Source: Schmidtea nova (taxonomy: Eukaryota). From it: 64,000 nt of DNA. The DNA lies in NCBI GenBank assembly GCA_044892505.1, contig CM097882.1, forward strand, positions 183,024,001-183,088,000, in the 5' to 3' direction. Below, piece after piece: positions 21,981 through 51,408 of this stretch; within the stretch, counting starts at the first letter, position 1, and each line of letters begins with the position of its first letter. Both the position numbers and the translations under genes were made by a program. The notes under the pieces are model-generated. The model saw only the letters and a list, made by a program, of their open reading frames with translations. It searched no databases and was not told the origin of the DNA.

Positions 21981-22015
21981 ATTGGTCAATCCAACCAGAC
22001 GGATCAGTATAAATA
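21981..22015 (+). promoter_or_regulatory. Putative LTR promoter: reverse CCAAT (ATTGG) and TATAAATA
   Basis: ATTGG at 21981 and TATAAATA at 22008-22015, between an inverted CTGATCC/GGATCAG pair. This implies a short U3 of about 400 bp and a very long transcribed R-U5. Confidence 0.5.
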
Positions 22016-23529: not shown

Positions 23530-23715
23530 AAACTGATTAACAAATGTTGAAATTGTGTTAAAATATTAGAGTTCATTAGTGCATTTTTGTTTTGTTGTTT
23601 TGAGTTTTGGTTTTGTGTTTTTAATAGTTCGTATTGTAACCTAATAATCCTATAATCAAATTTTAATTTTTCACATAATTTAATCATAAAGTAAATATCC
23701 TAAATAAATTATAGA

Positions 23716-24336: not shown

Positions 24337-24788
24337 AATTGTTATCGTTCTTTTAAATGGATTTAATTAACTTTACAAATGATTAGATAAAGATAGAATA
24401 AAAGTATAAACTCATTTTACAAAATACCTAATAGAGATAAATAAATAATTAAACGAGCATTTGTTGAAATACTTCTTGCAGAATGAGAGAGGTTAAAGAT
24501 AAATTTACTGAAAGATATTGCGGAACACCCAAATAGATGATTAAAGCATAAGTCCTTCTAACGGCAGCGATGAACCCGTAAACATAAATGGGGAGTAGTA
24601 CTAGCGATAGTGCTCACCTGCCCATCATTGTTTAACCACCCTGCGCATCACCAACTTGGTTATACAGGGAAATAATCAAGGGCGCTTGAGTGTAGAATTG
24701 CAATTTTGTGCATGATCATGGATGAGGGAATCCCTAGTCATTGTTAGAGCATTTTTCATCTAACCCCTCCATGAACCCAGCATAAATT

Positions 24789-24806
24789 TGGGGGCTCAGC
24801 CGGGAT
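24789..24806 (+). promoter_or_regulatory. Primer-binding site, tRNA-Pro-like
   Basis: TGGGGGCTCAGCCGGGAT, 6 nt after the LTR end; 16/18 identical to the tRNA-Pro PBS TGGGGGCTCGTCCGGGAT used by MLV. Confidence 0.85.
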
Positions 24807-25112: not shown

Positions 25113-25574
25113 ATGGAGGAAAAACTGAAAGAAATTGAAGAATTTCTCAACACAGAAAGCGAAACATTAGAAACGATTGGCAAGAAAATAAACCGATTTA
25201 GAGAAATTGAATTTCAGGAACCCACAACACAGACTGAGGAAACAGAGGAATTAATAAAGATAACAGAGAGAACAAGAAAAATCGACATAAAGACCCGCTA
25301 CAAATGGTACAGAACACGATTAGAAAACGCAGAATTAAATATTAAGTGCAAGCAAATAGAACAACAATTAACCTCAACATACAATCAATGGAGGGCGCAA
25401 GGGGTAGAAGCAGCGAAAAAATACCGACAGTGCTATATATGTGGGGATAGCGAGATACAAATTATGTTTTTACCTTGCGGACATTTTCGTTTTTGTAAGA
25501 TATGTGCCAGCAAGTGCGACCTATGTCCTATGTGCAACCTGAGGATAGACGATAAAATTATTGTATATTTATAA
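25113..25574 (+). CDS. Coiled-coil plus C-terminal C3HC4 RING protein (IAP/MDM2-type RING)
   Basis: CYICGDSEIQIMFLPCGHFRFCKICASKCDLCPMCNLRI at the extreme C-terminus. No BIR motif seen. Confidence 0.85.
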   Translation: MEEKLKEIEEFLNTESETLETIGKKINRFREIEFQEPTTQTEETEELIKITERTRKIDIKTRYKWYRTRLENAELNIKCKQIEQQLTSTYNQWRAQGVEAAKKYRQCYICGDSEIQIMFLPCGHFRFCKICASKCDLCPMCNLRIDDKIIVYL

Positions 25575-32678: not shown

Positions 32679-35600
32679 ATGAAAAAGAAATTCGAAAAAA
32701 TATTGGAAGAGTTAGAAAAAGAACAAGCAGGAACAGGAAACGCAAAGTCATCAATGAATCTGAGTGCCATAATAATGATGATGTTGATTTGGATGATTAG
32801 CACCGATAGCGCAACAGCATTCGAAGTGTTTGATTGCGACCAAATGAAGTTAGGAGAAAAGTATTCATTGAGAGGTACGGAGCAATGCAAAGATGCAACT
32901 CCAGTAGAGTTGCAAAAGATTAAAAAGGAACAATGGTACCACGTGTATCAAGAAGCAGAACTCATAAAGACAATGGTGAATGAATGTAAAGTGCAGAAGA
33001 CGAGATTCGCATTCTACTGCGGGAGAGGACATTATTCAGCAATTGTCATGCCAGGAACGGAAAGAGAACCAATCGTGTTACAAGGAGAAGACTGCGAAGC
33101 ACTGTTTAAACATGGAGAAGTAACAACAAGGGATAAAATCAAGATAAGAGGAAAGCCAGGAATGATGATGCAACAGACGTACTATGTAGCAGGACGGATT
33201 ACGGGAGGAGAAGGATATTGTCAAGGCGAAACCTACCCGATATTCGGAGTACCCGCAACCAACTTAGTGGTGATGGATACGTATATAGTCGAACTAAAAA
33301 GCTACGAAGCATTCTTCGAACCAACAACGGGAGAAATGAAAACGTTATCCATGTGTAAAATCGACAGGAGCATGTGTCAAACGGGAATGTCAACATTAGT
33401 GTACAAACCAAAGGTGAACGAATGTCAATTACAACTGCTACAAGGAGCACAGTTCGACGAAATCCAAGGAAAAACGTTTCAGGAAGAAGACGATGACGAC
33501 AAAGCTAGAGCAAAGCATCTCAAGGAAGCTTTGGAGAATAAAAGACAATTGAAACCGGATCATAGAGAAAAACGGATAGAGATGAGAGCCACACCAACAG
33601 TGTTGATAACCACAAATCAAGATGTGGGAATGAGATTCATAAAAGGGAAAGCAACCCTTAAGTGTAGTACAACGGTATATGAAACGAATTACCCAGGAAT
33701 ATATGTGTCAAAACAAGAAGTGCCAAATGCGAAACCCAAAATCGACACAATGGATATCAAACTACACTTGTATGTGAATAATAAAATGGATTTCCTATTC
33801 CATAGAGGACAAGCCTCATTACAAAAAGTGTATTACGATCTGATCAATAACGATTGTATACTGAATCGAGAAATACTAAAGACAAAATTGGCCGTAGCAA
33901 TTACGAATCCCGATAGCGCGATGCCATTATTACCACTGAGAGAAGGACATTTCGGAAGAGTGGTTGGAGAAGCAATGTATGTATACATCTGCGAAAAGAC
34001 ACACGCATCGCTAGCAGCAACAACACAGTTGAAACCTGGAACCTGTACAAATGAGTTAGAAATCGATTACAAAGGAAAAGTACGATACGTTCAACCGGTG
34101 ACGAGAATCATCAATCCACCAGGGTTTGAACCAAATCCATTCAACTGTAGTAATGCGTATGGACCGCTTTATCAGAAACCAGATGGTAAATGGGTTATGT
34201 TCCCAGGAAGATCCGAAGTGATAGCACCAAGAGAATTCGAGCTAATGCAGTTGTCAAAGGATAGGCAATTCAGCGACGTAGATGTCTCAAACAATGGAAT
34301 ATATAGTCCGAAAGATTTAGAAGCAGCAAGGCAGAATATATTATTCCCAGCAAGAAGAGAAGCATTACTGTCAAATATCGTAACGATAACGGGAGGAACG
34401 GATTATCGAGAAGGACCGAATTATGAACTATTGTTGTCACCAGCACATTTCAAGAAAGCCACAGAAAATATGATGAAAGCAATGTGGGGAAGATTTTTGA
34501 TATTCGGACAAATGATGGCCGGAATACTGGGGGTCATATTAATAATCCAAATCGTCAGAGTGATAATAACGCAAATGCTCGCATGTTTCGATATCTACAA
34601 GAGAGAAAAGAAAGTGAATTGGAAAATGGTAGTAGGGTTTTTACCATTCCTTGCGAAAACGATGGTGTTACACGGGCACTCAAAAGATATCCACCGAATA
34701 AAAAGACTCCTAAAGATATTAGCAAAAATGAAGGGAACAGATGAAGAAGTAGGACGAAAATTTAAAAAGATAATGAATGATGAACAAGCAAGACAACAGC
34801 TCAAGAGAGAAAGAAAAGGTTTATGGGAGAGGATGAAAGGATATAAAACCCAAAATGATTCGAGTGACGACGACGATGACGATGACGACTATAAGGGAGG
34901 ACAGGTGTATAAGAACCAAGCACCACAATACATCGAAAAGAATCCAGCCGACGCATGGAAATGTTACGCACCTCCACCAACAATGTATCAAGAACCACTA
35001 CAAGGAGGAAAAAATAGCACGATGCAAATGATGCCAATGACAAATGTATATCCCATGATACCAGAAGATTATAAAATGAGAAGATGTAGAAGCGTAGATC
35101 CACAAGGGGATACACACACGATCGCAGTAATGTCATCAAACACAGGTCCAGTATTAACCACGACAATAGAGATTAACGGAAGGGAAATCGAAGCAATGAT
35201 CGACACGGGAGCAAACATTTCCGCCATCGACATCAAATGGATACCACAAGAGCAAAGACGAGAAATAGAAAGGACAAACGTCCATGTAATTGCATGTAGC
35301 AAAGAAGTTGTAGAAGTAGCAGGAAGATGGTGGGTAAAAATACGCCATTTAAACACGGAAATCGATACGTACGTAGCTGTCATACCAGCATTAAGCGTAC
35401 CTTGCATTATCGGAACAGATTTGATGCCAGCACTATTTAAAGAGATTGTAATCGATCTTGGAACAATGAGACTAAAAGATCGCACCGGACAAATATGCGC
35501 AATAGAAGCCAAAGTGACAAGTTCAAAGCAAATGATAATACCCGCAAGAAAGGAAAAAATATGTTATGTAAAAATAGATCCAACAATCCAAGGGGATATG

Positions 35601-38600
35601 ATTTTCGAACCAAGTAAGAGATTCGAGAAAAGAAAAGCGTTGCCAATGGCAAGAGGACTAGTTAACATAAACGATGATGGAGAAATCCCAATAAACGTAG
35701 TAAACTTCGATGAAGAGGACAAAATAATATACGAAAACGAAAGATTAGGTAAATTAACCCCAATGATGGATATCGAACTACCAATAGAAGGAGCAGAGAA
35801 AGATAAAGAACCAACCTGGAATATTGATAGTGAATTATTAAACGAGGATCAAAAGAAGCAGTTAGAAAAACTTTTGATGGAGTATAAGGATATATTTGCA
35901 GCATCCGATTTGGATCTAGGAACATGTGATGTCACACTACATACAATACCATTAACAGATGAAACACCAATTGCATTAAGGCCGTACAAATTAGCGGAAG
36001 CACAGAAAGCAGTAGCAGAAGCAGAAGTGAAGAAAATGTTGGATGCAGAAGTAATCGAACCAAGTTGTTCACCCTGGCAATTTCCAGTGGTAATGGTAAA
36101 GAAAAAAGACGGAACACAGAGATTCTGCATAGACTATCGAAGATTGAATACAGTGACAAAAAGGGATACTTACCCATTACCAGACATTAATGAAATGCTA
36201 TTAACATTACAAGGAGCAGCATATTTTACGTCGTTAGATCTGAAAAGCGGATATTGGCAAATAAAAATGAAGGAAGAAGATAAGGTGAAAACTGCCTTTA
36301 CCATCGGGAGAGATTTATATCAATTTCGAAAAATGCCATTTGGATTAACGAACGCACCAGCATCATTTCAGAGATGCATGAATTTCGTCACCCGTGGAAT
36401 AAAGCAGTGTATGGTCTACATAGACGACTTATTAATTTATTCTAGCACGTTTGAACAACACATACAGGATATTCGAGATGTATTCGTTAGGCTTAGACAA
36501 TGGAAGTTAAAACTCAAGCCATCAAAATGCGATTGGGCAAAAGAAAAGGTTACATTTTTAGGACATATAGTGTCAGCAAAAGGAAAAGAACCGGATCCCA
36601 GAAATATCGACAAAGTAAAAGAATGCCCAGTACCAAAAACAATAACCCAAATACAAGAATTTCTCGGACTATGTGGATACTATAGAAAGTTTATAAAAGA
36701 TTACGCTGGAATCGCAAAGCCTATACAGGAACTGGTAAAGAAAGATGTATCATTCATATGGGGAGATGAACAACAAACAGCCTTTGAAACATTGAGAGAT
36801 AAACTGATAACCGCACCCATATTAGTACACCCAGACTTTAAGAAGCCATTCTTACTTGCAACGGATGCAAGCGGATATGCAGCAGGAGCCGTATTAGGAC
36901 AATACGACGACGAAGGAAAAGAACGGGTAATCGGATATTATAGCCGAACATTCAAAAAGCACGAGAAAAATTACTCAGTAACAGAACGGGAAGCATTAGC
37001 AATTATATTAGCTATTAAACACTTTAAATATTTACTATGGGGTCACATCATTTGCATAACAACAGATCACCAACCGCTTGTATGGTTAGGACAGCACAAG
37101 GAAACATCCAGTAGATTAATGCGATGGGCAATGCAGTTACAGGAGTACTCACCAGACATAAAATTTAAATCAGGAAAAGCGAATGCGAATGCAGATTGTA
37201 TGTCAAGACTGACATTTCCGGAATTAACCGATCCTGATGTACAACGAATTTGTGTGTTAATAGCGGAAGATTTAGATTTTAGTGAGTTAAAGAAAGATCA
37301 ACAGGAAGACAAAGAATTGGGACAGATCATAGAGTTCCTAACGTCTCGAAATATGGAGGTATTTAAGGATAATAAGGAATTAAAGGAACATATAGGAAAA
37401 TATCAACATCGCTACATAATAAATAAAGGATGGTTGTTAATACAAGACGGGGAAAAGAGATTGATGTGTTTACCGGAAAACAGAAGGAAAGAGATAATGA
37501 TCAAATACCATGATGGGAAATTGGGAGGTCATATGTCCGAGAAAAAGACCATAAATCGTATGAGACAAAAATATTATTGGCGAACAATGGAAGAAGATAT
37601 AAAGGAATGGATTAAAAATTGTCTAACTTGCGCAACCAGAAAGGATAGTGGGAAGAAATGGAAGAACCCGCTACAACCAATGCCGATACCAGCAGAGCCA
37701 ATGACAACTATAGCAATGGACGTAATAGGACCACTACCAGAAAGTTTAAACGGAAATATTTATATATTGGTAATAACGGATTATCTGACAAAATTCCCGG
37801 AAGCATTTGCCATGCAAGATCAAAAAGCAAAAACCGTAGCAAAAATTTTGGTAGAAGAAATATGTTGCAGATACGGAACTCCAAAACAAATACTCACAGA
37901 CCAAGGAACTAATTTTATGAGTGAGTTATTGAACGAGGTGACAAACTATTTCAGAATAGCAAAATTGAGAACTTCACCATATCACCCGCAAACGAATGGA
38001 CAAACAGAGAGATTCAACGGTACATTGATTAGAATGTTATCAAATTACGTCAGCAGACACCAAACTGATTGGGACGAATACATAAAATTATGTTTAATGG
38101 CATACCGAATGTCGATACATGCAGCAACAAAACTAAGCCCATTTCAACTTATGTATGGAAGAGAATGCAACATGCCCATAGATTTAGAGTATCAGCCACC
38201 ATTATCACAATATATGGAAGACGACGACTACGTAACCAAATTCAAAGAAAGAATGCAGGAAATATGGAAAACGGCAGAACTCAACATTAAATTTTATCAG
38301 GAAAGTTATAAGGACTTACACGACCAGAAGAAAAATGTTAAAGCGAACGATCTAAAACCAGGAGATTGGGTGATAATAGAAACTCCCGAAATAATACCAG
38401 GAACAGTTAAGAAACTCCAAAGACCTGGAAGAGGACCTTATGAAATTATATACAAAAAGGACAATAATGTCAAAGTTAAGCTAATAAATCGACCGTTAAT
38501 ACGACCCATATATGTAAACACCTGCAGATGTAAGAAGGTGCCTAAAACGATAACTACAACACCAGAAAATCGAATAATAACTAGATCACAAACAGCCAGG

Positions 38601-41600
38601 ATAAATATGCTCAGAGCTAATGTAACTGAAGACGACAAAGCAGAAATAAGGCAAAAAGAAATCAGAAACAAAGAGATCATATTGAAGGCGAGAGAAATAA
38701 TGGGAAGATGGCATGTTAGAGACGAAGCAGGCATATCAAGGGATATTAGACATATGATTAGCCGTTACGCACAAGGATTACCAACCGAACCAATTATTTC
38801 TGAATTATTGGAAAAAATCCCTGAAATACTCTTATTGAAAGATGTAGGAGGACAACCAGCCTTACATAATGCGATAGAGTGTAAAAACATTGAAAGAGCA
38901 AAAGAATTCCTAAAAATCGCAAAAGAAACAAACCAAAACTTGGACGTAGGGAATCGGGAACAAGAAACTCCATTAATGACAGCCGCAATCCACCAAGCAG
39001 ATAAAGAAATGATAGACCTATTGATAAAAGCTCATTTCAGTTGGACAGAACGAGATAGAGAGGACAAAACAGTGCTAAATCACGTAATATGGAGTTCTCA
39101 CCAACCAATGCTGAAATACATAATAGCTAACTCCACTTGGGAGATAGACGAACTAGTTAAAGGAGACATTATCAAAGAGGCAATCAAAATTGGTAAATGC
39201 AACACGATCCGTAAGTTAATCAAATGGAAACGACCAGAAGATGATACATGGGTCTTAGACATAAACGAAGTATACAGCGAAGGACAAAACGCACTGTTAA
39301 GATACCTTTTGAAATTTACTTGTGATCAGAAGACATTACTAACCTTATTAGACAGAGGAAACATAAACATCACAAAGAATGAAGAAGAATACAAATTCGA
39401 TAAAGAGAAGGAAGCCTTATTCAACAAGATTAGGAAATGGTGTGCGAAACCACTTGATAAACTAATAACATACAAAGACATAAACAATTTTAACGAGAAA
39501 TACCAGACGATAGTAAGCGAATATGAGGAATTAGTAAAAATCTTAAACCATCCCGAAAAATGCAAACAGGTTTTAGAGAAAAAAGAAAGAGAAAGTAACA
39601 AGAAACTCACACCACTCTTCAAAGCAGAAGCACCATACCAAGCTAGACTAGATGCGATACAAGAAAAAGCAAAAGAATTGTTACCGGAATTCGAGAATAG
39701 TAAACATGCACTGGAAATACTCGGCGCATTAGTTGAAAAAGTACACGCATACGCAAAAGGAACATACAATGGTAACGACATAGTAATAATAAAAAAGGAA
39801 ATGCCAGTAACATTCCTATTACCAAAAGACGGAATAATGCCCATACATAGAGCTCTACGAAATGGCAAAGATAGGAAAGTAATGGAAATTGCAAGAGTAA
39901 TGCTAAATTGCGGAAGCAATATGAATATGATAGACGAGAAAGGAGATACACTTATGGTATTTGCAGCAAGGGCCAAAACGAAAACAAAGGTATTAGAAGA
40001 ACTATACAAAGCAGGTGCAGGACTTACAGGAAAGACAGATAAAGATAATTCGATATTAGATGTAGCATTATTAACACACAATTGGGAAATGGTCAATTTC
40101 ATTAAAACCGTCCCAAATCAGGAAGAAATAGATCACCTAACTGATACGGTCAAGAAACCCAGTGTACTAGCAATGATGAACAACGTCGAACTAACAGAAT
40201 CAATACTTACGTGGATAAATCCTAATACTAACGAACCAGCATTCAGGATTAATAAATTTACAGAACATAACCAAAACTGGTGTATAAGAAGTGCCTTAAT
40301 AACGTATAAATGGCCAGAGATATTGAAGATGTTTATGGAAAGAAAGGATCTAAGAATCACAACCAGCCCGAAAGAAGAAAAATACACAGGCAAATGGAAA
40401 GAATTGATGAAGACATACATCAACAATTGGATCAAGGCCAAAAAGGAAATCTTGGAATATAAATCCACTAACAAAGTAATACCGGAGCAGGTAGAAACAC
40501 AAGAATTTGAGGCAAGCAATCTAACGACATTAGCATATGCAAAATTAATAGAAGAAATCAATGTCGAGGACGACATTTTCGACGAGCCAGGGGGAGATGA
40601 CAACACAGATAGTGACGACGATAACAACTCAGAAAATTCAAGCGATCACGAACCACCCGATAAAGAGGAAAACGAGAGAAAAGACAAGAAACGAGACAAG
40701 GAAGGAAAGAAAGGTGAAGACGAAAAACAAAGAGATGAAGAGAGAGAACAAGGAACAAACGACCAAGGAGATAAAAATGACACCCAAAGAACAGGTTATA
40801 AATCAACTATAAAACCATTCTTCAGACCAGAGTTACTATTATTAACAGTGATTTTAACGTTAATTAATCCAAGTCAAGGAATGACATGTGAAGAAAGGGC
40901 AATAATACAAATAAAAAACGCAAAAGGAATCGAACGAGTATGTTGGTCGAAAAAGGACAAAATCACGGAACAAAATAGCCCGATGGATTGCAGAATCTCA
41001 GAACACGAGCAAGAAATCATAGAGATCAACGACCTAGATCTAGATACCTGGTACAAAATATGCACCGTTAGGAAACAAAAGCATCCAAGATCACACAACA
41101 CAATCGCATGTGCAAAATACCAAACACCTAAAGCAGCCATGACAATACAACAGTCACCCAAAGGAGATTACATCCTCGGAAAATGTGGAAGAACAGAGAC
41201 ACAGGGAACAGAAAACAAAAAACCCCAGGCAATAGATAAGCAAACAACACCAACCCTACGAATTACAATAAAGAGGCCCGAAACAAGAATTGCCACAAAC
41301 GAAACCGAAAGAGTGTCTTACCAAATGGAAGTATTATGCTTAGCACTCATACTAATAATAATAAAACGATTAGAGGAAGGAATAGAAATTGAAACTATGA
41401 CAATAACAGAAGTAGAAGATACACAGAATACTAACATAAAATGTTGGGCGAGGAATAACGAGGAAATCGGCGTAAATGAAATAAGGAAAAGTCGAAAACC
41501 AACAACGAATAAAGTAATTAAAGTATCCAAAGTAAAAGCAGATAAGACGTACAAACTATGCCTACTAGAAAAAGAGACAAACAAGAAAGGTACCACAAAA

Positions 41601-44282
41601 TGTAAAACATTCCAACCTGGAGAAGTAATAAAGTTCAGAAGGAGAACGAGGAAGAGAAATAAACAAATCAAACAGAAAGTAAACATAACATTAGAAATAA
41701 AAGAGATAGAACCAAATGTGAAAGGAGTATGCTGGAGGAAGTACGAAAAAGAAACGAATGAAAGAAAGACACCACAATGTCGAACAAACACAGGAACAAC
41801 GACAATTCAAATAAAAGGTTTAGAAAGTAAACAAACCTACGAAATATGTTTAGTAAAGAAAAATGATCAGATAACGATAAACGACCTAGAATGCGGAATA
41901 TACACCACTTCATCCGGAACAAGAACTAAAACGTTAACACGAAAAAATAAAAGAAGACAACGAAACAAAGGGAAACCGAAGTACACCACTACCTTTAAAA
42001 ACAATAAACAACCGATAAGCCAAGAAGTTACGACAAAACCCGAGAAAAAGACATCAGCAACTCTGACATTATGGAAAATAGAGAATAAAACATTGGAGAT
42101 ATGTTGGATAATAGTCCAGAAACATATAAGAAGACAATCAAGAGAGTGCAGAAAAACAAATAAAGAAATCAAGATCGAAAAACTACAATTTAATAGCGAG
42201 TACGAAGTATGTACAATAGAAAAAACGGACGCACTAGGAAACCAACAAGAAAGATGCGAAACCTACTATACACCAGCGAACGCAACATCAAAAGGAATAA
42301 CAAGGAAACTCGAATTCAGGGAACTAAGCCAAACGAATGAACAAATGGACGTAGAAAAAACAATAACCGACCCTCAAGCAAAATGGACACCCGAAGAAGT
42401 TATCAAGGAAGTCAAAAGAAAGCAAGAGGAACGGGAACAATTAATGAGAAAACTAAAGGGACAATACGGAATAATGTTCAACCAAAGCGAATCTATACAA
42501 ACAGACGAGAATAAAGAAATTAAAGAACTAATTGGCTTAGGAATATTAACAGCGACCATACCAGTAATAATCGCGTTATCAGCTATATGGATACGCAAGA
42601 TAAACCCAAAGAAATCGGTAACCCAATGGACAAATAGAGACAGTACAAGCCATGGAGTGGAAATGCTAGAAGAAGAAGCACGAGAAGAACCAAAAAAGAA
42701 AGAAGCAAAAAGCGGAAAACTAGGAATAAACAACAAAGACAAGAAAATAAAAGAGATTAAAGGAGAAGAGAAAAAATATGAAAGGCGAACCAGAAGCCTA
42801 CCGCAGAGTTCAACATGGTTGAGTCTAACAATAATATTGACATTAATTAATAGGGAAGAAGCAATAAACCCACAGACAGGGATAAAAGTAATAAATGTCC
42901 AGGAAGTCGAGAAAATATGTTGGTATAGAGAAGATGAACCAATTGGAGAAAATAACCCACTAAAATGCATAATCAGAAAATCCGACCAGGATATCGTACG
43001 AATAGAAGAAATGGATGGAGGAACCATGCATCGGATATGCATAATAGAAAAGGAAAAGAAGTCGGGACTACCTAAGACAGTCGTATGCCAGAAATATGAA
43101 ACGCCTAGACTTGAATGGTATAGAGTAAAACCAACAAAGAAAGAAATCAAAAACACAATAGATCAACCAGCAACTCAGATAAGAAACACAACGGATAAAC
43201 CAGGAGAAGGAGAGAAAAGCACCAATAAAACGAGAGAAAGAATATCACCCCAACAGGAGTGCGTATGCATAGCATTAATAATAGCAATGTCCAAACGTAT
43301 CAATAAAGGAATAACAATAGAACAAATGGCCATGACAATAAGGAGAAAAGGCCGGAGTAGCAACAAAATATGCTGGGGATGGTACAACGAACAAAAAGAA
43401 TACCAAGTTCAGACAAGCGACGAATCACGAACAAACAAGGAAACCGAAATACAAGAAATACAAATGGACGGAGAAGGAAGTATATGTATATGGGAGAAAG
43501 GAATCCAAGAAGATCAACCCGGAATAGAAAAGTGCAAGACATTCCAAAAAGGAGAAATTCTGAAATTCGATGAAAAAGAATTAACCAAAACAGAAAGAAC
43601 TCTGACATTAACAGGACTTGATCAGACAGTGAAAGGAATATGTTGGACAAAACATAACCCAGAAGGAGAGGAAGGTAACCTAACCCACTGTAAAGAAACA
43701 GGGAATAAGGAAAAAGTCGAATTAAAGAAAATGGAAGTAAATAAGACATACGCGATATGTACCTTCACTAGAAAAGGTTCAGAAAAACCAGAATGCGGAT
43801 TATATCAGATCTCAGAGAAACTACAACAACAGATCAAACCATTAAACGTGGAAAACCGAACAAAAGAAAATAACGTCAAACAACTACTAAATCGCCATTG
43901 GTCTACACAAGAAGTAATGAACAAAGTCAAGAATCAAGTACAGAAGGAGAAGAAGCCAGAGGCTCAAACCCAAAATGAGATAAAAGCGAATCAGAATAAA
44001 ATCAAAGCAACAAACCGTGGAAAAACAGTAATAGGATTAATCAGTATAGGAATATTAATAGCATATGGGATAATGACGACAAGCATAATAGTATATTGGA
44101 GATACAGAAAGAGAAACAAAGCGACAGCCATACAATGGCCAGATATTAAAATTATGAAGCAAAGAATAGAAATACCAGAAGAGATACAGCAAGAATTCCA
44201 AAGAAGAACGAAAGGTAACGAATTCTGGAAACAAAGAGAAGACGAAGAACGATACGAGGAAAAGACGATAATGATGGTATAG
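32679..44282 (+). CDS. pol: Env-Pol-cargo polyprotein (3867 aa): signal peptide, chuvirus-like glycoprotein with TM, PR, RT, RNase H, integrase, ankyrin repeats, two FN3-like membrane modules
   Basis: MIDTGAN (35202), VYIDDLL (36417), ATDASG / NYSVTEREALA / TDHQPL, HDGKLGGH..CLTC, MDVIG..TDQGTNF..TERFNGTL, GPY. Ankyrin motifs GQPALHNA, ETPLMTA and GIMPIHRA. Confidence 0.95.
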   Translation: MKKKFEKILEELEKEQAGTGNAKSSMNLSAIIMMMLIWMISTDSATAFEVFDCDQMKLGEKYSLRGTEQCKDATPVELQKIKKEQWYHVYQEAELIKTMVNECKVQKTRFAFYCGRGHYSAIVMPGTEREPIVLQGEDCEALFKHGEVTTRDKIKIRGKPGMMMQQTYYVAGRITGGEGYCQGETYPIFGVPATNLVVMDTYIVELKSYEAFFEPTTGEMKTLSMCKIDRSMCQTGMSTLVYKPKVNECQLQLLQGAQFDEIQGKTFQEEDDDDKARAKHLKEALENKRQLKPDHREKRIEMRATPTVLITTNQDVGMRFIKGKATLKCSTTVYETNYPGIYVSKQEVPNAKPKIDTMDIKLHLYVNNKMDFLFHRGQASLQKVYYDLINNDCILNREILKTKLAVAITNPDSAMPLLPLREGHFGRVVGEAMYVYICEKTHASLAATTQLKPGTCTNELEIDYKGKVRYVQPVTRIINPPGFEPNPFNCSNAYGPLYQKPDGKWVMFPGRSEVIAPREFELMQLSKDRQFSDVDVSNNGIYSPKDLEAARQNILFPARREALLSNIVTITGGTDYREGPNYELLLSPAHFKKATENMMKAMWGRFLIFGQMMAGILGVILIIQIVRVIITQMLACFDIYKREKKVNWKMVVGFLPFLAKTMVLHGHSKDIHRIKRLLKILAKMKGTDEEVGRKFKKIMNDEQARQQLKRERKGLWERMKGYKTQNDSSDDDDDDDDYKGGQVYKNQAPQYIEKNPADAWKCYAPPPTMYQEPLQGGKNSTMQMMPMTNVYPMIPEDYKMRRCRSVDPQGDTHTIAVMSSNTGPVLTTTIEINGREIEAMIDTGANISAIDIKWIPQEQRREIERTNVHVIACSKEVVEVAGRWWVKIRHLNTEIDTYVAVIPALSVPCIIGTDLMPALFKEIVIDLGTMRLKDRTGQICAIEAKVTSSKQMIIPARKEKICYVKIDPTIQGDMIFEPSKRFEKRKALPMARGLVNINDDGEIPINVVNFDEEDKIIYENERLGKLTPMMDIELPIEGAEKDKEPTWNIDSELLNEDQKKQLEKLLMEYKDIFAASDLDLGTCDVTLHTIPLTDETPIALRPYKLAEAQKAVAEAEVKKMLDAEVIEPSCSPWQFPVVMVKKKDGTQRFCIDYRRLNTVTKRDTYPLPDINEMLLTLQGAAYFTSLDLKSGYWQIKMKEEDKVKTAFTIGRDLYQFRKMPFGLTNAPASFQRCMNFVTRGIKQCMVYIDDLLIYSSTFEQHIQDIRDVFVRLRQWKLKLKPSKCDWAKEKVTFLGHIVSAKGKEPDPRNIDKVKECPVPKTITQIQEFLGLCGYYRKFIKDYAGIAKPIQELVKKDVSFIWGDEQQTAFETLRDKLITAPILVHPDFKKPFLLATDASGYAAGAVLGQYDDEGKERVIGYYSRTFKKHEKNYSVTEREALAIILAIKHFKYLLWGHIICITTDHQPLVWLGQHKETSSRLMRWAMQLQEYSPDIKFKSGKANANADCMSRLTFPELTDPDVQRICVLIAEDLDFSELKKDQQEDKELGQIIEFLTSRNMEVFKDNKELKEHIGKYQHRYIINKGWLLIQDGEKRLMCLPENRRKEIMIKYHDGKLGGHMSEKKTINRMRQKYYWRTMEEDIKEWIKNCLTCATRKDSGKKWKNPLQPMPIPAEPMTTIAMDVIGPLPESLNGNIYILVITDYLTKFPEAFAMQDQKAKTVAKILVEEICCRYGTPKQILTDQGTNFMSELLNEVTNYFRIAKLRTSPYHPQTNGQTERFNGTLIRMLSNYVSRHQTDWDEYIKLCLMAYRMSIHAATKLSPFQLMYGRECNMPIDLEYQPPLSQYMEDDDYVTKFKERMQEIWKTAELNIKFYQESYKDLHDQKKNVKANDLKPGDWVIIETPEIIPGTVKKLQRPGRGPYEIIYKKDNNVKVKLINRPLIRPIYVNTCRCKKVPKTITTTPENRIITRSQTARINMLRANVTEDDKAEIRQKEIRNKEIILKAREIMGRWHVRDEAGISRDIRHMISRYAQGLPTEPIISELLEKIPEILLLKDVGGQPALHNAIECKNIERAKEFLKIAKETNQNLDVGNREQETPLMTAAIHQADKEMIDLLIKAHFSWTERDREDKTVLNHVIWSSHQPMLKYIIANSTWEIDELVKGDIIKEAIKIGKCNTIRKLIKWKRPEDDTWVLDINEVYSEGQNALLRYLLKFTCDQKTLLTLLDRGNINITKNEEEYKFDKEKEALFNKIRKWCAKPLDKLITYKDINNFNEKYQTIVSEYEELVKILNHPEKCKQVLEKKERESNKKLTPLFKAEAPYQARLDAIQEKAKELLPEFENSKHALEILGALVEKVHAYAKGTYNGNDIVIIKKEMPVTFLLPKDGIMPIHRALRNGKDRKVMEIARVMLNCGSNMNMIDEKGDTLMVFAARAKTKTKVLEELYKAGAGLTGKTDKDNSILDVALLTHNWEMVNFIKTVPNQEEIDHLTDTVKKPSVLAMMNNVELTESILTWINPNTNEPAFRINKFTEHNQNWCIRSALITYKWPEILKMFMERKDLRITTSPKEEKYTGKWKELMKTYINNWIKAKKEILEYKSTNKVIPEQVETQEFEASNLTTLAYAKLIEEINVEDDIFDEPGGDDNTDSDDDNNSENSSDHEPPDKEENERKDKKRDKEGKKGEDEKQRDEEREQGTNDQGDKNDTQRTGYKSTIKPFFRPELLLLTVILTLINPSQGMTCEERAIIQIKNAKGIERVCWSKKDKITEQNSPMDCRISEHEQEIIEINDLDLDTWYKICTVRKQKHPRSHNTIACAKYQTPKAAMTIQQSPKGDYILGKCGRTETQGTENKKPQAIDKQTTPTLRITIKRPETRIATNETERVSYQMEVLCLALILIIIKRLEEGIEIETMTITEVEDTQNTNIKCWARNNEEIGVNEIRKSRKPTTNKVIKVSKVKADKTYKLCLLEKETNKKGTTKCKTFQPGEVIKFRRRTRKRNKQIKQKVNITLEIKEIEPNVKGVCWRKYEKETNERKTPQCRTNTGTTTIQIKGLESKQTYEICLVKKNDQITINDLECGIYTTSSGTRTKTLTRKNKRRQRNKGKPKYTTTFKNNKQPISQEVTTKPEKKTSATLTLWKIENKTLEICWIIVQKHIRRQSRECRKTNKEIKIEKLQFNSEYEVCTIEKTDALGNQQERCETYYTPANATSKGITRKLEFRELSQTNEQMDVEKTITDPQAKWTPEEVIKEVKRKQEEREQLMRKLKGQYGIMFNQSESIQTDENKEIKELIGLGILTATIPVIIALSAIWIRKINPKKSVTQWTNRDSTSHGVEMLEEEAREEPKKKEAKSGKLGINNKDKKIKEIKGEEKKYERRTRSLPQSSTWLSLTIILTLINREEAINPQTGIKVINVQEVEKICWYREDEPIGENNPLKCIIRKSDQDIVRIEEMDGGTMHRICIIEKEKKSGLPKTVVCQKYETPRLEWYRVKPTKKEIKNTIDQPATQIRNTTDKPGEGEKSTNKTRERISPQQECVCIALIIAMSKRINKGITIEQMAMTIRRKGRSSNKICWGWYNEQKEYQVQTSDESRTNKETEIQEIQMDGEGSICIWEKGIQEDQPGIEKCKTFQKGEILKFDEKELTKTERTLTLTGLDQTVKGICWTKHNPEGEEGNLTHCKETGNKEKVELKKMEVNKTYAICTFTRKGSEKPECGLYQISEKLQQQIKPLNVENRTKENNVKQLLNRHWSTQEVMNKVKNQVQKEKKPEAQTQNEIKANQNKIKATNRGKTVIGLISIGILIAYGIMTTSIIVYWRYRKRNKATAIQWPDIKIMKQRIEIPEEIQQEFQRRTKGNEFWKQREDEERYEEKTIMMV

Positions 44283-44406
44283 GGGCGGATTATGACTGTA
44301 AATAATAGTGTAAATAACAAAGCATTACCGTAATAGTATGGGTATCGATATTATAAAAATTGTAAAAAGCTAGAAAAACAAAGTAAATGATGTATATAAT
44401 TTAGAA

Positions 44407-44763
44407 ATGACCGAACAGGACGAAACAACTGAAATAACTATGGCTATGAGATGGAAGGCACAATGTGATTTATTAGTACGAACAGTCAACTCATTACAGA
44501 ACCAATTAGCGGAAAGACAAATGTTATTATCAGAGAGTTATAACAATTGTTTCGAACAATTACACAGAATAGAGGAACAACAAAGAGTGATAACTGAACT
44601 CACCAGAGAAAATCAAACGATAAGCAACACCAATCAAAGACAAGCAATAGAAATAAACCATTTAACACGAGGAGAAAGAGAAGGATCCGAAGAAGGATGG
44701 ATGAGTTGGGTAATAAATAGATTAAACAGCGAAGCGGAACCAGATTCAACGAATGAGCCATAG
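44407..44763 (+). CDS. Small coiled-coil protein (118 aa)
   Basis: Heptad-rich LVRTVNSLQNQLAERQ...LHRIEEQQRVITELTRENQ; TTTAG|AA-ATG context. Confidence 0.65.
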   Translation: MTEQDETTEITMAMRWKAQCDLLVRTVNSLQNQLAERQMLLSESYNNCFEQLHRIEEQQRVITELTRENQTISNTNQRQAIEINHLTRGEREGSEEGWMSWVINRLNSEAEPDSTNEP

Positions 44764-44856
44764 ATAAATAAAGCGGAAAACTGTAAATATGTAAAAATAA
44801 AAACAAGAAAAATCAAAAAATGAATGACAAGTCGAATGTATATATTATTGTAGAAA

Positions 44857-46233
44857 ATGGACAGAGAAGAACGAATCATCGAAATTTTGAGATTAGAAAA
44901 CAGAAAATGGAGTAAGAGGCTCACATGCGGGAAGTGTAACAATTTATTACGAGAACCCAGACAAACGATATGTGGATGTAGAATATGTACAAAATGTATA
45001 CAAGAATTGGATGCAACAGGAATAACAACATGCCCAGAATGTAAAGAAGGAGGAATAGTGTTGGACGAAACCAGAACGGACAAAGCAACCCAAAGAGAAA
45101 TTATGAGCACCACAACGGAGTGCGTAAATACACCTTGTACATGGCAAGGACAAATAAGTAATCTAGAAAACCATATGGAAAAATGCGAAGAAAAGAGAGC
45201 CGAATGCGAGAAGTGCCAACAGACAATAATTCTAAAGAAGAGAGAACAACACAAGGAAGAATGTAAAGAAGAAGAAATCGCATGCGAGTATTGTGAAGCC
45301 CGAGAAACAAGGAGAAAAATCGAAGAGGAACACTTGAATATAACAGAGGAGAAAGTATGCAGACAATATGTAAGTAAATGTCCAAACAATTGCGAAATAA
45401 CAGAAGAAGTAAAGTTACATGAACATTGGAAAGTATGTACCGAAAGACCAAGAGAATGTCCATATAACAAACAGGGATGCAAAGAAAAGCGGACGCGGCA
45501 ATCAATGAAACAACACCTAGAAGAAGCAGCACTAACGCATGTGGAAATGTCAAACGAAACGACAAAAGGAACGGAACAGACAATCCAGAAATTAGAAAAA
45601 GAAGTAGAATCACATAAGATAATGATGAGTTTACTACTAGAAACAAGAGAGCAGTTTGAACTAACTCGCGAAAAAATGGAAAAGAAAATAATAGCCATAG
45701 AAGAATTAGGAAAAGGAATGAAAATACAATATAATCAATTAATACGAGAAATTGACGAAAGAAGGGACTTACCAATCGCACCTTACCTATGGAAAGTAAC
45801 AGATTTCAGAGACAAACTAGCAGAAGCCAGAAATATGACGAAAACAGCAGTAATAAGCCCACCATTTTATTTATGGAAAAACGGGGTTAAAATAAGATTG
45901 AAAGTATACCCAAATGGAGACGGAAGAGGACAAGGAACACACGTGTCAATATTCTTCTCACTATGTAAAGGAGAATACGATGACCTAATAGAATGGCCCT
46001 TGAAAGTAGGAGTCATTATAAGAATCAAAAGTATGGGAAAACCAGTAGAAAAGTTCTTTGAAACAGATAAACATACCAGTACGAGCGAAAAACCCACAAC
46101 AGAATGCGGACTAGCAGCAGGAGAACCAATGTTTATAAGGAAAGAAAACCTATGGGAGCGACTATATGCAGACACGCTATACATAGAGATGGAGAGGCAT
46201 GAGAAAACAGACAGAAAAGGATGGTTGGCGTAA
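44857..46233 (+). CDS. TRAF-family protein (RING, TRAF zinc fingers, coiled coil, MATH)
   Basis: RING CGKCNNLLREPRQTICGCRICTKC..CPEC; CVNTPCTWQGQISNLENHMEKC; MATH WKVTDF..ISPPFY..RLKVYPNGDGRGQGTHVSIFFSLCKGEYDDLIEWP. Confidence 0.95.
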   Translation: MDREERIIEILRLENRKWSKRLTCGKCNNLLREPRQTICGCRICTKCIQELDATGITTCPECKEGGIVLDETRTDKATQREIMSTTTECVNTPCTWQGQISNLENHMEKCEEKRAECEKCQQTIILKKREQHKEECKEEEIACEYCEARETRRKIEEEHLNITEEKVCRQYVSKCPNNCEITEEVKLHEHWKVCTERPRECPYNKQGCKEKRTRQSMKQHLEEAALTHVEMSNETTKGTEQTIQKLEKEVESHKIMMSLLLETREQFELTREKMEKKIIAIEELGKGMKIQYNQLIREIDERRDLPIAPYLWKVTDFRDKLAEARNMTKTAVISPPFYLWKNGVKIRLKVYPNGDGRGQGTHVSIFFSLCKGEYDDLIEWPLKVGVIIRIKSMGKPVEKFFETDKHTSTSEKPTTECGLAAGEPMFIRKENLWERLYADTLYIEMERHEKTDRKGWLA

Positions 46234-46346
46234 TGAAGGAAGTGACCATGTAAATAAAATGTATAGAAACAATATAAATTAACGAATAATCAAAAACAAT
46301 AAAAATAAAAAATGATTAAATATTCTTTTTATCTGTAATTATAGAA

Positions 46347-47408
46347 ATGGGAAATATAGAAGTAACCTTACAAGAAGTAACAGTACATCAAGACGAAATG
46401 ATCAGAAATCACATGGAGCGGATTGGGATATGGATTCATGCCTATTATCGAAAACAGGAGGAATTGGAAAGACAAACCCAAGCACTAAGAGAAGCCGAGA
46501 AAACGAATCAAAGAAGTCGAGAAAAAATAGAAGAAGTCTACAAACTACTAAGACAACAAAACGAATACTACAAAGAGATGATGAAAGAGCGACGAGAGGA
46601 TAGGGATAGACAACAAATAAAAACAGACCATAAGATTCAGTCAATCACAGAACAATCAAGATATTGGAAGAAAGAGGCAAAAGACTCTTATAAGGAAGCA
46701 AGGGAGATAATAGAACGAACAGCGTACAGCGATGATTGGAAACTGTTTAAAGAGATCGATGAATTAAAAGAGGAATTAGGGCAAAAGATCAGTCAAGAAG
46801 CGTCAAATAAAGTATGGAGTAAGAAAAGACAACAATTTATCAGAGAACAAGCCAAGAAAATAAAAGAATTAACTTATCAAGTACAAAGAATGGGAGAAGA
46901 TTTAGCCAATCAAGAACAATTAAAAGGTATGCTGACCGGAATGTGGAATCACAAAGAAGAAAACATGAAAAGAGATATAAATGGATATCAAGGAGTGATC
47001 ACCCAGAAGAAAATAGAATTAAAAAGAACTAAAGAAAGACTGGAAGAAACGAGGCAGAGTTATGAAGAGAACATAACAAATTTGACAAAAGAAAACGAAG
47101 AACTGAGAAAGAAGTTGGCAGAAAAACCAACGCCAATAAAAGAAACAAGTATCACAGCAGCAGTGACCGAAATGATGGAGAAAGAAGAGAGAGAGAAAAG
47201 ATTAATGGAACTAGAAAGACAAATTGAAACCCTTACAGAACAAGCAAACTATTTGGAATACTTGTTAGACGAAGAGATCCAAATATCCCACACATACCGA
47301 GAAGAAGTCGAAATGTGGAGGAGCACGGTAATATGGATGCCACTCCCCATAAATCAGGTGGAACCTCAAGACGAAGGTTTTCACGAACCCAACGAAACCC
47401 TTGTATAA
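46347..47408 (+). CDS. Long coiled-coil protein (353 aa)
   Basis: E/K/Q/R-rich heptads throughout; no other motif recognised; TTATAG|AA-ATG context. Confidence 0.75.
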   Translation: MGNIEVTLQEVTVHQDEMIRNHMERIGIWIHAYYRKQEELERQTQALREAEKTNQRSREKIEEVYKLLRQQNEYYKEMMKERREDRDRQQIKTDHKIQSITEQSRYWKKEAKDSYKEAREIIERTAYSDDWKLFKEIDELKEELGQKISQEASNKVWSKKRQQFIREQAKKIKELTYQVQRMGEDLANQEQLKGMLTGMWNHKEENMKRDINGYQGVITQKKIELKRTKERLEETRQSYEENITNLTKENEELRKKLAEKPTPIKETSITAAVTEMMEKEEREKRLMELERQIETLTEQANYLEYLLDEEIQISHTYREEVEMWRSTVIWMPLPINQVEPQDEGFHEPNETLV

Positions 47409-47483
47409 ATGTGCGGAAACCAAGTGTAAATAAATTATGTAAAATAAAAAGTGTCAAGCTGTATTGACCGATGTATAAAAGAG

Positions 47484-48053
47484 ATGAGAAAGCTCGCAAT
47501 AACAACACTCCTATGGTTAACAACCATTACCCTACAGAGAGAAGATCTACAACTAACCGAAACCCAATTACGAGTGCTACCCGACAAAATCTACCAGAAA
47601 GTAGACATACTAATCGAAGAAGTACTTAGAGAAATCAACGAATTCCGACAGAAATACCCTCACAATCAAGATCATCAAATCCAACAAATCTTCGATAACC
47701 AACAACTGAAACTAGAAGAAACCCGAAAAATTCTGAAAGAAGGTAGAGAACCCATAAAAAGCCTATCCCAAGCTGAAATAGAATATCAAGAGAAATGGAT
47801 CATAGCAATCATCATAATCCTAGCAGTCAGCACAACTATCATCGCAATCACAATCCTAATTGCCTCATATAGAATAAAAATCCTAAAACAAAAGCAGAAA
47901 ATCTACAACCAAACCTCCAGACGAGATAACCGATCTCAAAGACAAATAAGGAGCCATCTCAATCACATTCAAACCCACTACGAGCTACAAATGATCAACG
48001 AGAGGACCCGAACCCAACCCCAAGCGAGCCAGACGATCGAACAAATTGTATAA
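47484..48053 (+). CDS. Putative type-I membrane protein (signal peptide, helical ectodomain, TM, basic tail)
   Basis: The track start 47451 is GTG; ATG 47484 gives MRKLAITTLLWLTTITLQ. TM WIIAIIIILAVSTTIIAITILIASY followed by RIKILKQKQK. Confidence 0.7.
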   Translation: MRKLAITTLLWLTTITLQREDLQLTETQLRVLPDKIYQKVDILIEEVLREINEFRQKYPHNQDHQIQQIFDNQQLKLEETRKILKEGREPIKSLSQAEIEYQEKWIIAIIIILAVSTTIIAITILIASYRIKILKQKQKIYNQTSRRDNRSQRQIRSHLNHIQTHYELQMINERTRTQPQASQTIEQIV

Positions 48054-48226
48054 ATATTATGATAACTTATCGAACTATTGTGACAAATCATTACATTTTG
48101 ACTATTTAGTGACAAACCTTATGATATGTATAAATTCGATCACCCTATGTGATTTTTTCTTTGCATGTATAACTTTATAAAACTTTTTATGGATGATGAA
48201 AATAAGTAGTTATGTATAATTAATTG

Positions 48227-48256: not shown

Positions 48257-51200
48257 TGTTGGGCCCGCCAAATCACCTAAAAAACACAAGGAACGAACAA
48301 AAGCATGAAACAATAAAGAAATAATAAAAATAAAAATAGCAAGAAAAACAAATTAAAAATAACAATAAAACGACAAATAATAATTAATAAATTTTCAGTA
48401 AAAGGAAATTTTGAAATAAACCGGTAAACAACCGCAAAGGGGGGCCTGAAATAAGAAAAAATAGAATTAAATAAAATAATAGTGCAAATAATTAATTAAT
48501 TACTTGGAAAATCAGGACCACCCAGCGAGAAACCGGAAAAGGAAACAAAATAATGTTTAGATTAGATTAAAATAATAAAAATACTTTGAAGGACGGTCTG
48601 ATCCTGATTGGTCAATCCAACCAGACGGATCAGTATAAATACCGATCCAAAAATCACAGACTTAGACGTTTACTTTTCACTCACAATCAAGACTAAACTT
48701 TGATTTGAGTAAATTTTTGAAAAAACCGAATTTCATGCAAGGAACCACACATTCAAGTACGGAAGTAATTTTTTATGTTATCTTATATGATGTACCCATG
48801 ATTTTTATTTAATTAAAATCTTATATGTAAACGTTATTTGATCTTATTTTTCCTTTTTGATATTTTAATGCATATAGTTATACTTCCTATGCTGCTCACG
48901 CGGCGAGGGAGTCCGAGTCGTCGTTGTGGGGCCTCACGGTCTCACATGGCGGTTCAACCTTTTTATTGTTTTGGTTTTCATATTTAATTTGGTAGTTGAA
49001 ATAATTAAATTACATCATTCGAATTTAACTAGATATTTATCAGCGAGATTAGAGAATTTTAATGCTTATTTAGTCGAGTAAAATTTTCAGTCACGAAATA
49101 TCGATAATGCGAATACGTCCAGACAGTTTTCTGGCAATAAGTAAAAAAGTCATCATTTGGTTGTACAGGGGACGTAGCGCAGCGGGCGGTAGAGAAGGTC
49201 TAAGGAGATACCAAGAGGGGGTAAAGTACCCGATAGGTGTCAGGTACCCGAGACAAATGGGTTGACACGCTGAGGTTAAATTTGAGGACGAGAGAGCAGG
49301 TATAGCATGACAAGTTATAAAAACTTTCCAAGTAAATCGATCAAACTGATGAATTTCAATTGAGGTCAAGGTACAGGATATCGCAACTGCATGACAGAGA
49401 TTAGTAAGACTGAAAATCATAAATTCTAAAAATACTTTAAATTCCAGTCTAATAAAACTAAAAATCTGTAATTCTAAAAATACTTTTATGCCGATCGCTG
49501 TACATAGCGCGGTAGCTCAAAATAATCTTATCCTGATCGTCGTACATGGCGCAGGGAAACAAATATCTTATCCGACCGTGGTATATCGCGGTGATGGTTT
49601 AAAAATGAGATGGTATTAACTAAAAGGATTGAGATTAAATAGAATTTACATTTAACTCTTTATTAAATAAAATGACAGATGCTGACATCGTTGAACGAAA
49701 GATTAACGCGGATTCGGAACTCAGGAAAGGAGGACAGGGCGAATGAATGGGCAAATCAGCTCAAGGAGTTGCCCCAGCCAATTCTGCGGACCATTAATGC
49801 CCAAGCATACAAGTGGCGGCAAGGGTTTGGTCGAAAGTGCCCGTTTTCCATCTGGGACGGAGGAAACGATATAATACTCTATCGAGGAGGACCGAACTGG
49901 CCGATTTCTCAAAGGCCGTACTCAAACAAATTTGGCCGACTTGTCGTACTGATCAAGGACACAGATGGACGGACAAGCCGTGTAATTTATTGGGGGCATA
50001 TCCCTCGTCGGGAACTATGCCAACTAGGTCTACACGAATTCCTACCGCGAAAACCGTTCGGCAAGGAGTGCCAGAAGGGACAACCCTCATTCTCTTGGGC
50101 TCGTCTTCGTCAGAAACCGATTAACAGCGAATTGCATAGTTTGTTTCGGAGATGAAAACTGATTAACAAATGTTGAAATTGTGTTAAAATATTAGAGTTC
50201 ATTAGTGCATTTTTGTTTTGTTGTTTTGAGTTTTGGTTTTGTGTTTTTAATAGTTCGTATTGTAACCTAATAATCCTATAATCAAATTTTAATTTTTCAC
50301 ATAATTTAATCATAAAGTAAATATCCTAAATAAATTATAGAATGACCACCGATTTGATACAGAGAGAATTGGAAAAGATGTGGCGGATCCGGAGAGCCCA
50401 GGACAAAGAATTGGGTCTCCTCAAGGCACAATTGATCAAAGCAGAGGCACAGATCGCATACTTGCGCAAAAGCTGGTTTGCTCCGGCCCGAATGAAGGAG
50501 CAAATCAGTAAAACCGAGCGCGCCCAACAGACTGCAGCCGATTACCAAATGGAATGGGAGGCCACAAGGATAGAACTCCGAAAATGCCTCCATTCCGTAA
50601 CTGCCTCATATATTGAGAAAGAGCTCAGAGAGCAAATCCGTCCGGTTACGTACCAAGCGTGGACATCAGAAAAGAAGACGGTAAATTCGATTGGCACGGA
50701 TGTCGCCGATCTAATCGAAAGTCGGAATGAGACAGCTCCTGCAGCAAATGCAACCACCTCATCGGCGAATGCGCACCAGAAACGCAAGCGCATTGGGCAG
50801 AAACGGCGAAGACAGAGGAAATTATTTGCCCAGCAATTACAAAGCCAAGTAGATGGTCTACATCAGATGACCGAGGAGGCATTATTGACGGAGATTTTCC
50901 CTCCGGCTGGAGTTTTTTTCGGAATTGATGAAAACTTAAATAAAATTTTCGTGTTAATTTAAAATTGTTATCGTTCTTTTAAATGGATTTAATTAACTTT
51001 ACAAATGATTAGATAAAGATAGAATAAAAGTATAAACTCATTTTACAAAATACCTAATAGAGATAAATAAATAATTAAACGAGCATTTGTTGAAATACTT
51101 CTTGCAGAATGAGAGAGGTTAAAGATAAATTTACTGAAAGATATTGCGGAACACCCAAATAGATGATTAAAGCATAAGTCCTTCTAACGGCAGCGATGAA

Positions 51201-51408
51201 CCCGTAAACATAAATGGGGAGTAGTACTAGCGATAGTGCTCACCTGCCCATCATTGTTTAACCACCCTGCGCATCACCAACTTGGTTATACAGGGAAATA
51301 ATCAAGGGCGCTTGAGTGTAGAATTGCAATTTTGTGCATGATCATGGATGAGGGAATCCCTAGTCATTGTTAGAGCATTTTTCATCTAACCCCTCCATGA
51401 ACCCAGCA
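48257..51408 (+). repeat. 3' LTR (3152 bp)
   Basis: Colinear copy of 21631-24782, followed by TSD ATAG. Confidence 0.97.

Follow-up and report, generated by a model that had tools for sequence, protein, structure and literature searches.

Burro elements, the giant Ty3/gypsy retrotransposons of planarians, are already known, as are the domains of their cargo, the operons of flatworms, and both readings of the RNA word UGUA, one through the 3'-end factor CFIm and one through Pumilio. A eukaryotic RNA normally has only its first open reading frame (ORF) translated, and how separate cargo ORFs get made is therefore a question. Burro elements have been reported, in a second-hand account, to carry anti-apoptotic cargo that supports planarian stem cells (PMC13465017). 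The excerpts of that paper and section 7 of PMC6431247 contain nothing on accessory-ORF expression, the excerpts of PMC8532177 and PMC11410931 mention Burro without transcript structure, and full-text literature searches, seen in excerpt, gave no account of signals between Burro ORFs or of retroelement cargo that is processed in an operon-like way. Here we describe a Burro-like element of 29.8 kb (positions 21631-51408) in a stretch of 64,000 nucleotides (nt) from Schmidtea nova (contig CM097882.1), which we call the window. Behind its polyprotein lie four cargo ORFs, co-oriented and, by a limit of 300 bp, closely spaced, each preceded by a spacer of 75-124 nt. These spacers hold a real, non-random, strand-specific junction signal.

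The stop-anchored module of the cargo spacers

The array is laid out as follows.

44283..44406 (+): spacer 1, 124 nt; GCGGA at 44285; TGTAAATA at 44297 and 44309; without an AAUAAA-type hexamer; TGTATATA at 44391; acceptor-like ATTTAG ending at 44404
44407..44763 (+): cargo ORF 1, 118 amino acids, no confident family; codon score +0.27 in frame versus -1.03 and -0.40 in the other frames
44764..44856 (+): spacer 2, 93 nt; GCGGA at 44773; TGTAAATA at 44782; second TGTA at 44790; AATAAA at 44767 and 44796; TGTATATA at 44837; acceptor-like TTGTAG ending at 44853
44857..46233 (+): TRAF-like cargo ORF, 458 amino acids; TRAF zinc fingers and MATH domain (Pfam MATH_2, E-value 6e-21)
46234..46346 (+): spacer 3, 113 nt; GGA at 46238; TGTAAATA at 46249, overlapping AATAAA at 46253; second TGTA at 46260; U-rich tract; acceptor-like TTATAG ending at 46344
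46347..47408 (+): coiled-coil-like cargo ORF, 353 amino acids; weak Filament match (E-value 0.004) and codon score
47409..47483 (+): spacer 4, 75 nt; GCGGA at 47413; TGTAAATA at 47425, overlapping AATAAA at 47429; second TGTA at 47438; AATAAA at 47443; weak AAG/GAG acceptor candidates only
47484..48053 (+): last cargo ORF, 189 amino acids; one predicted transmembrane segment; no stop-locked module behind it

The original prediction had placed seven perfect UGUAHAUA words in these spacers, which together measure 405 nt, and every position and stop distance that it gave proved exact. TGTAAATA occurs five times and TGTATATA twice, and the first TGTAAATA copies start 15, 19, 16 and 17 nt after the stops at 44282, 44763, 46233 and 47408. 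Its rough expectation of well under one copy also holds: dinucleotide-shuffled spacers contain 0.35 copies on average and 4 at most, and none of 20,000 shuffles reaches seven. As a correction for choosing the motif after the fact, we counted the shuffles in which any 8-mer is common to all four spacers. There are 913 of these in 20,000, and a single one when the common 8-mer must lie within a 5-nt window measured from the stop. As a control, UGUAHAUA starts at +15 to +19 after 9 of 4,569 stop triplets of the flanks. Its density is 17 per kb in the spacers versus 0.27 per kb per strand in the flanks, and the window as a whole has 30 matches versus 12.3 expected. All seven spacer copies are on the sense strand, and so are all 15 TGTA words (antisense: 0). 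A strand-specific RNA signal is well supported, and the whole analysis rests on four spacers of one element.

The octamer is part of a larger layout that follows each stop on the sense strand only: one GGA, then TGTAAATA, then a second UGUA. Exactly one GGA is found per spacer, at +5, +12, +5 and +7 (sense to antisense, 4:0), and in three of the four it is part of GCGGA, an outcome seen in none of 20,000 shuffles. The second TGTA stands at +27, +27, +27 and +30 despite differing internal spacing, and two TGTA within the first 35 nt of all four spacers again occur in 0 of 20,000 shuffles. The first octamer lies 59-110 nt before the next ATG, compared with a range of only 4 nt from the stop. Because the distance to the stop is held while that to the ATG varies, we consider the module to be tied to the stop codon. 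AATAAA overlaps or follows the module in spacers 2-4 and is absent from spacer 1; in these three of the four spacers, UGUA lies upstream of or overlaps a hexamer of the AAUAAA type. The module occurs only behind the four stops that have another cargo ORF close downstream, and no stop-locked copy follows the last cargo ORF, a RING-finger ORF near the 5' end of the element, or the ORFs within its long terminal repeats (LTRs).

Could the spacers be decayed coding sequence? This is ruled out by one to eight stops in every frame and by negative codon scores; the codon signature of the element is present in all four cargo ORFs and not in the spacers. Outside the motifs the spacers align poorly, and a global alignment of the four is uninformative. 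They have no notable RNA structure (z +0.45 to +1.38), and Rfam and tRNA scans of the window gave 0 matches. The best named homologues of the TRAF-like ORF are TRAF2-like, with 23-27% identity over most of its length. As a separate observation, TGTATAA encloses both the stop of the coiled-coil ORF (47402-47408) and that of the last ORF (in 48047-48220), and behind the last ORF it recurs at 48127, 48166 and 48213, before the 3' LTR.

Acceptor-like sites and the operon-like reading

The two TGTATATA copies, at 44391 and 44837, are found 16 and 20 nt before the next ATG, in a T-richer tract ahead of an AG, and probably form a class other than that of the stop-proximal copies. TGTA occurs within the last 20 nt of all four spacers (52 of 20,000 shuffles). 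In three of the four, the sequence turns T-richer toward its end and closes with WTNTAG, 2-3 nt short of the ATG. Shuffling never produces a WTNYAG end in three of four spacers (0 of 20,000), and by their T-richness upstream these three spacer acceptors rank in the top 0.1-1.6% among 2,349 AGs. WTNTAG, a pattern defined only after the sites had been seen, ends 0-3 nt before the ATG of five of the seven accessory ORFs, including the RING ORF and one of the LTR ORFs (LTR-B), versus 2 of the 567 other ATGs of the element. The exact form TTNYAG precedes three of the seven, versus 3 of 567. The other LTR ORF (LTR-A) has CAG directly before its ATG, and its coding signal is doubtful. In parasitic flatworms, spliced-leader (SL) acceptors fit UUNYAG, and no other motif was enriched within 50 bases of them (PMC12582326). 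Across our spacers, UUNYAG is exact in two, has one mismatch in one, and is absent from one.

The original prediction had also argued for separate 3' ends per cistron. The acceptor-like sites at the ATGs, which it did not mention, add independent support for a separate mRNA per cistron. Its argument that either reading of the octamer supports separate 3' ends does not follow, because a Pumilio site works in any 3' untranslated region (UTR) and needs no cleavage in the spacer. Its further suggestion, that PUF control would tie the cargo to regulation in stem and germ cells, is a possibility.

We tentatively favor, at slightly less than an even chance, the reading of the spacers as operon-like junctions that combine a conditional 3'-end signal with an acceptor, possibly for SL trans-splicing. 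The four spacers would then be versions of one two-part signal that turns a polycistronic RNA into separate cargo mRNAs. The stop-proximal half, with GGA, UGUAAAUA, and a second UGUA 8-13 nt further on that mostly overlaps or precedes AAUAAA, would be a conditional 3'-end signal of CFIm25 plus hexamer and would end the upstream cistron, whose 3' UTR would then measure roughly 45-65 nt. Metazoan CFIm sites have this arrangement, a paired UGUA and an AAUAAA that overlaps it (PMC11529991, PMC9636789), and in humans the UGUA lies 20-50 nt upstream of cleavage (PMC11529991). The ATG-proximal half, a T-richer tract, often with UGUA, and WTNTAG 0-3 nt before the ATG, would serve as a 3' splice acceptor and provide a new 5' end for the downstream cistron, in the simplest case through flatworm SL trans-splicing. 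The downstream ORFs of one Pol II transcript need new 5' ends, and these the acceptor-like sites at the ATGs would supply. The upstream cistron would need its own 3' end, in whose formation the UGUA pair would act. Full-length genomic RNA would require the skipping of all sites, and weak, factor-dependent sites would suit an element that also needs such RNA. The same UGUAAAUA may also bind Pumilio afterwards, two roles that sequence cannot separate; PMC9636789 has a case of one TGTA read as both a CFIm and a Pumilio site.

Flatworm operons are resolved by SL trans-splicing, and the spacer lengths fit the operon-like reading because the distance between trans-spliced genes in Macrostomum has a mode of about 100 bp (PMC8629364). 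The motifs, their positions, strand bias and chance rarity, and the type of element and host are the observed part of this reading. That the acceptor-like AGs are used is quite probable, and, given splicing, we lean slightly toward a leader that comes in trans rather than in cis. One donor-like site, at 26961/26962, was considered as a common cis leader and rejected: spliced to any of the four cargo ORFs, its upstream ATGs would be out of frame; a non-coding leader may still be used. The frame of an AUG supplied by the leader does not discriminate: such an AUG would be in frame for the TRAF-like ORF, for LTR-A and, at the GAG candidate, for the last ORF, in frame with an immediate stop for RING, and out of frame for cargo ORF 1, the coiled-coil ORF and LTR-B.

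Several points weigh against operon-like junctions. Nuclear processing cannot see stop codons, so the fixed distance from the stop counts against nuclear 3'-end processing and is more naturally explained by something acting during translation. The CFIm part faces planarian 3'-end data in which UGUA is not enriched at poly(A) sites. Spacer 1 is without any of the five hexamers enriched in planarian 3'-end data, and AATAAA is not enriched in the spacers (7 versus 4.6 expected; 3,168 of 20,000 shuffles). In three of the four spacers there is no clear U-rich element where cleavage would fall; the T fraction per 20 nt is mostly 0.1-0.4 and attains 0.45-0.55 only near two acceptors. As for the acceptors, spacer 4 has no good one before its ATG, WTNTAG was framed with the sites in view, and donor-like sites in the LTR and leader leave room for cis-splicing. 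Avoidance of UGUAHAUA in the coding sequences is not significant (0 versus 1.08 expected, with 147 of 500 synonymous shuffles also at 0).

Rival readings of the spacers

The main rival keeps the acceptors as real and takes the UGUA pair for a cytoplasmic Pumilio/PUF-type site just clear of the terminating ribosome, which would control translation or decay of each cistron, whether cleaved or not. We regard it as possible and rather unlikely. A rule of roughly 15 nt applies to sites in 3' UTRs, and the constancy of the first UGUA at +15 to +19 and of the second at +27 to +30, despite varied spacing, fits a translation-linked constraint. The five exact UGUAAAUA fit the PUM element UGUAHAUW (PMC7796173), although the second UGUA is not a full PUM element in three of the four spacers. 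The reported lack of UGUA at planarian poly(A) sites would remove the competing reading. The single host gene of the window has TGTA at +15, which may hint at a host convention (n = 1; background 121 of 4,569). However, neither the last cargo ORF nor the RING ORF, both of which should be just as suitable as targets, is followed by the module, and in two of the four spacers AATAAA and the octamer overlap, an arrangement expected of a composite poly(A) signal. The PUF site here is itself a prediction from sequence.

We find it improbable that the module shields the stops from nonsense-mediated decay in long co-terminal RNAs, be they genomic or cis-spliced subgenomic RNAs ending in the 3' LTR; the stability element of Rous sarcoma virus is an analogue. 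Such a shield would be stop-locked and would stand exactly behind the stops with further ORFs downstream and not behind the last, as observed. It would need no internal poly(A) site, so that the missing hexamer of spacer 1 poses no problem. However, the module is missing behind the stops of the RING ORF and the LTR ORFs, where the 3' UTRs would be longest, and protection from decay by binders of UGUAHAUA is a supposition.

The two remaining readings fit worse than either of these. The spacers could be internal promoters at the DNA level, with GTAAATA, which we take to be a forkhead-type site, and GGA(A/T), presumably an ETS-type core, and the putative promoter region of the LTR does have GTAAACA (21798), CCGGAA (21907), ATTGG (21981) and TATAAA (22008); this is very unlikely given the strict sense bias (TGTA 15:0, GGA 4:0) and TATA-like words just 12-20 nt before the ATG, and it leaves the AG directly before the ATG and the fixed stop distance unexplained. 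A bacterial promoter scan is irrelevant to a flatworm host. Just as remote is a relic, no longer selected, of one spacer copied at each cargo capture: the common GCGGA and TGTAAATA do suggest shared descent within the one element examined, but the spacers align poorly outside the motifs while stop distances are held, which points to selection, and the element is young with its cargo ORFs open.

The repeated junction signal gives exact coordinates against which existing long-read, 3'-end and SL data can be read. If the operon-like reading is true, a transposon would carry its array of genes by means of the host's trans-splicing, and 3'-end formation would depend on UGUA in a clade that reportedly has no such signal. 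It is tempting to go further. A giant flatworm retroelement might run cell-death and ubiquitin-signalling cargo as a true eukaryotic operon; each new gene would bring its own copy of a portable cassette, made of the stop-anchored UGUA pair and a trans-splice acceptor, and the cassette would connect the cargo to the host SL pathway. This we hold to be doubtful; if true, it would mean modular cargo capture and would help explain the growth of Burro to 30 kb. A Pumilio site or a shield against decay would, if true, be a stop-anchored RNA-protein module of more modest interest.

The element, its surroundings and known systems

The remaining features of the element are the following.

21631..24782 (+): 5' LTR of the giant Ty3/gypsy element, 3,152 bp, TG...CA; 1 mismatch versus the 3' LTR
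23716..24336 (+): LTR-B ORF, 206 amino acids, in both LTRs; TTATAG ends 1 nt before its ATG; coding signal weak
24789..24806 (+): stretch whose sequence is like a primer-binding site and which we take to resemble the 3' complement of tRNA-Pro
25113..25574 (+): RING-finger accessory ORF; Pfam zf-C3HC4_3, E-value 1.8e-11; ATTTAG ends 3 nt before its ATG
27804..32669 (+): Gag ORF; zinc knuckles (zf-CCHC) and a C-terminal Bcl-2-like domain
32679..44282 (+): polyprotein of Env (Monjiviricetes-type fusion), protease (PR), reverse transcriptase (RT), RNaseH (RH), integrase (IN) and ankyrin, from Pfam; 3,867 amino acids with a long C-terminal extension; its stop opens spacer 1
48257..51408 (+): 3' LTR, pairing with the 5' LTR

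Because the two LTRs differ by a single base, and a 4-bp target duplication flanks them (ATAG at 21627-21630 and 51409-51412), the insertion is young. Each LTR has two ORFs (23053-23529 and 23716-24336, again at 49679-50155 and 50342-50962) without a Pfam match, and in both an AG precedes the ATG by 0-1 nt. With a TATA box at 22008, they would lie within the transcribed part of the LTR. Directly after the RING stop there are AATAAA and U-rich sequence, without the UGUAHAUA module. Between RING and gag, the leader has two tandem arrays, 13 copies of 29 bp at 26051-26433 and 7 copies of 32 bp at 26476-26697. Two related small hairpins with the core CG-GGA-CG lie upstream of the RING ORF (24985-25005, unremarkable in folding) and just before the 3' LTR (48222-48238, folding better than 196 of 200 shuffles); they are possibly a packaging, dimerisation or priming signal.

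In the Gag frame, a TAA at 27273 is followed by open sequence from 27276, whose first ATG comes at 27804. A candidate cis intron at 26962-27214 (CAG/GTAATT ... TTTTAG/) links the ATGs at 26915 and 26936 to this frame. In a low-confidence structural model (pLDDT 51), the end of Gag, directly before env, appears to fold like Bcl-2: the top 18 structural matches are all of the Bcl-2 family (best Z 8.1, root-mean-square deviation 3.7, 117 aligned residues), and a sequence search of the PDB with this region gave nothing. An in-frame TAA at 32667-32669, 9 nt before the env-pol ATG, parts Gag-Bcl2 from env-pol, both in the same frame, and may be either a programmed stop or a break particular to this copy; among 24 relatives examined, a BH2-like GGW motif runs in frame into env in four. 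Long polyproteins of identical domain order came up in a profile-free search with the env region, and RT-IN is 40-47% identical to those of four related polyproteins tested. The end of the polyprotein (40600-44282, approximately 1,200 amino acids) has Cys-patterned, apparently repeated blocks and several hydrophobic segments, with no Pfam or self-BLAST match, and looks like an extracellular membrane protein fused to pol.

The window has no second cargo-bearing copy, only short LTR-like fragments at 57-157 and 604-711. Its flanks are AT-rich. The host gene at 60137-60565 is MARVEL-like; the TGTA that starts 15 nt after its stop is preceded by a G run. Its homologue scores 0.94 to Platyhelminthes clusters, which makes the host a flatworm, presumably a triclad; 15 residues are missing from this homologue, as a 45-nt in-frame intron would lead one to expect. 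The minus strand has a second, small Ty3/gypsy element (53363-58392) with identical 305-bp repeats. Traced backward, its pol frame stays open across an Asn-rich tandem repeat as far as the end of gag, which suggests frameshifting. Three minus-strand TGTAAATA words near this gag-pol junction (56949, 56967, 56985), considered as independent support for the spacer motif, were rejected, since they belong to a tandem repeat of 9/18 nt that encodes Asn-Asn-Val repeats within the open pol frame. Other sequences we take to be mobile-element remains are an inverted-repeat pair around a transposase-like ORF (5119-6029), a transposase-like ORF of 357 amino acids (12851-13924) and a degraded gag-pol-like element (62100-64000).

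How does this element compare with described systems? With Burro (PMC6431247; Burro1 via PMC13465017) it shares the size of approximately 30 kb, long LTRs and leader tandem repeats, the order gag-BCL2-env-PR-RT-RH-IN-ankyrin with a mononegavirus-like env that precedes PR and shares its frame, and TRAF/MATH, RING and ankyrin cargo. It differs in that TRAF is a separate downstream ORF in a four-gene cargo array, and an in-frame stop splits gag-BCL2 from env-pol where Burro has one uninterrupted ORF. There is also no Pfam match to dUTPase or to the BIR (IAP) domain of Burro1, the latter at E-value <= 0.01 in the nine element ORFs scanned, a search that a divergent BIR could escape.

Flatworm and nematode operons with poly(A) signals and SL acceptors (PMC8629364, PMC12582326) likewise have co-oriented ORFs about 100 nt apart and a UUNYAG-like acceptor upstream of the downstream ORF; here the arrangement lies inside a retrotransposon that would also have to make unprocessed full-length RNA, and it includes the stop-locked UGUA pair. 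The UGUA words are the same as those of CFIm sites with AAUAAA and of the Pumilio element UGUAHAUW (PMC11529991, PMC9636789, PMC7796173), but here they are paired at a fixed distance from the stop, in a clade whose model species has no UGUA enrichment at poly(A) sites. In the Ty3/gypsy element Cer1 of C. elegans, a spliced short RNA takes the leader SL1 while the 8-kb RNA skips the site (PMC3315495), a likeness to the processing proposed here. Cer1 has one 5' trans-splice site and a cis-spliced product, whereas the element described here has a serial cargo array with repeated junction signals.

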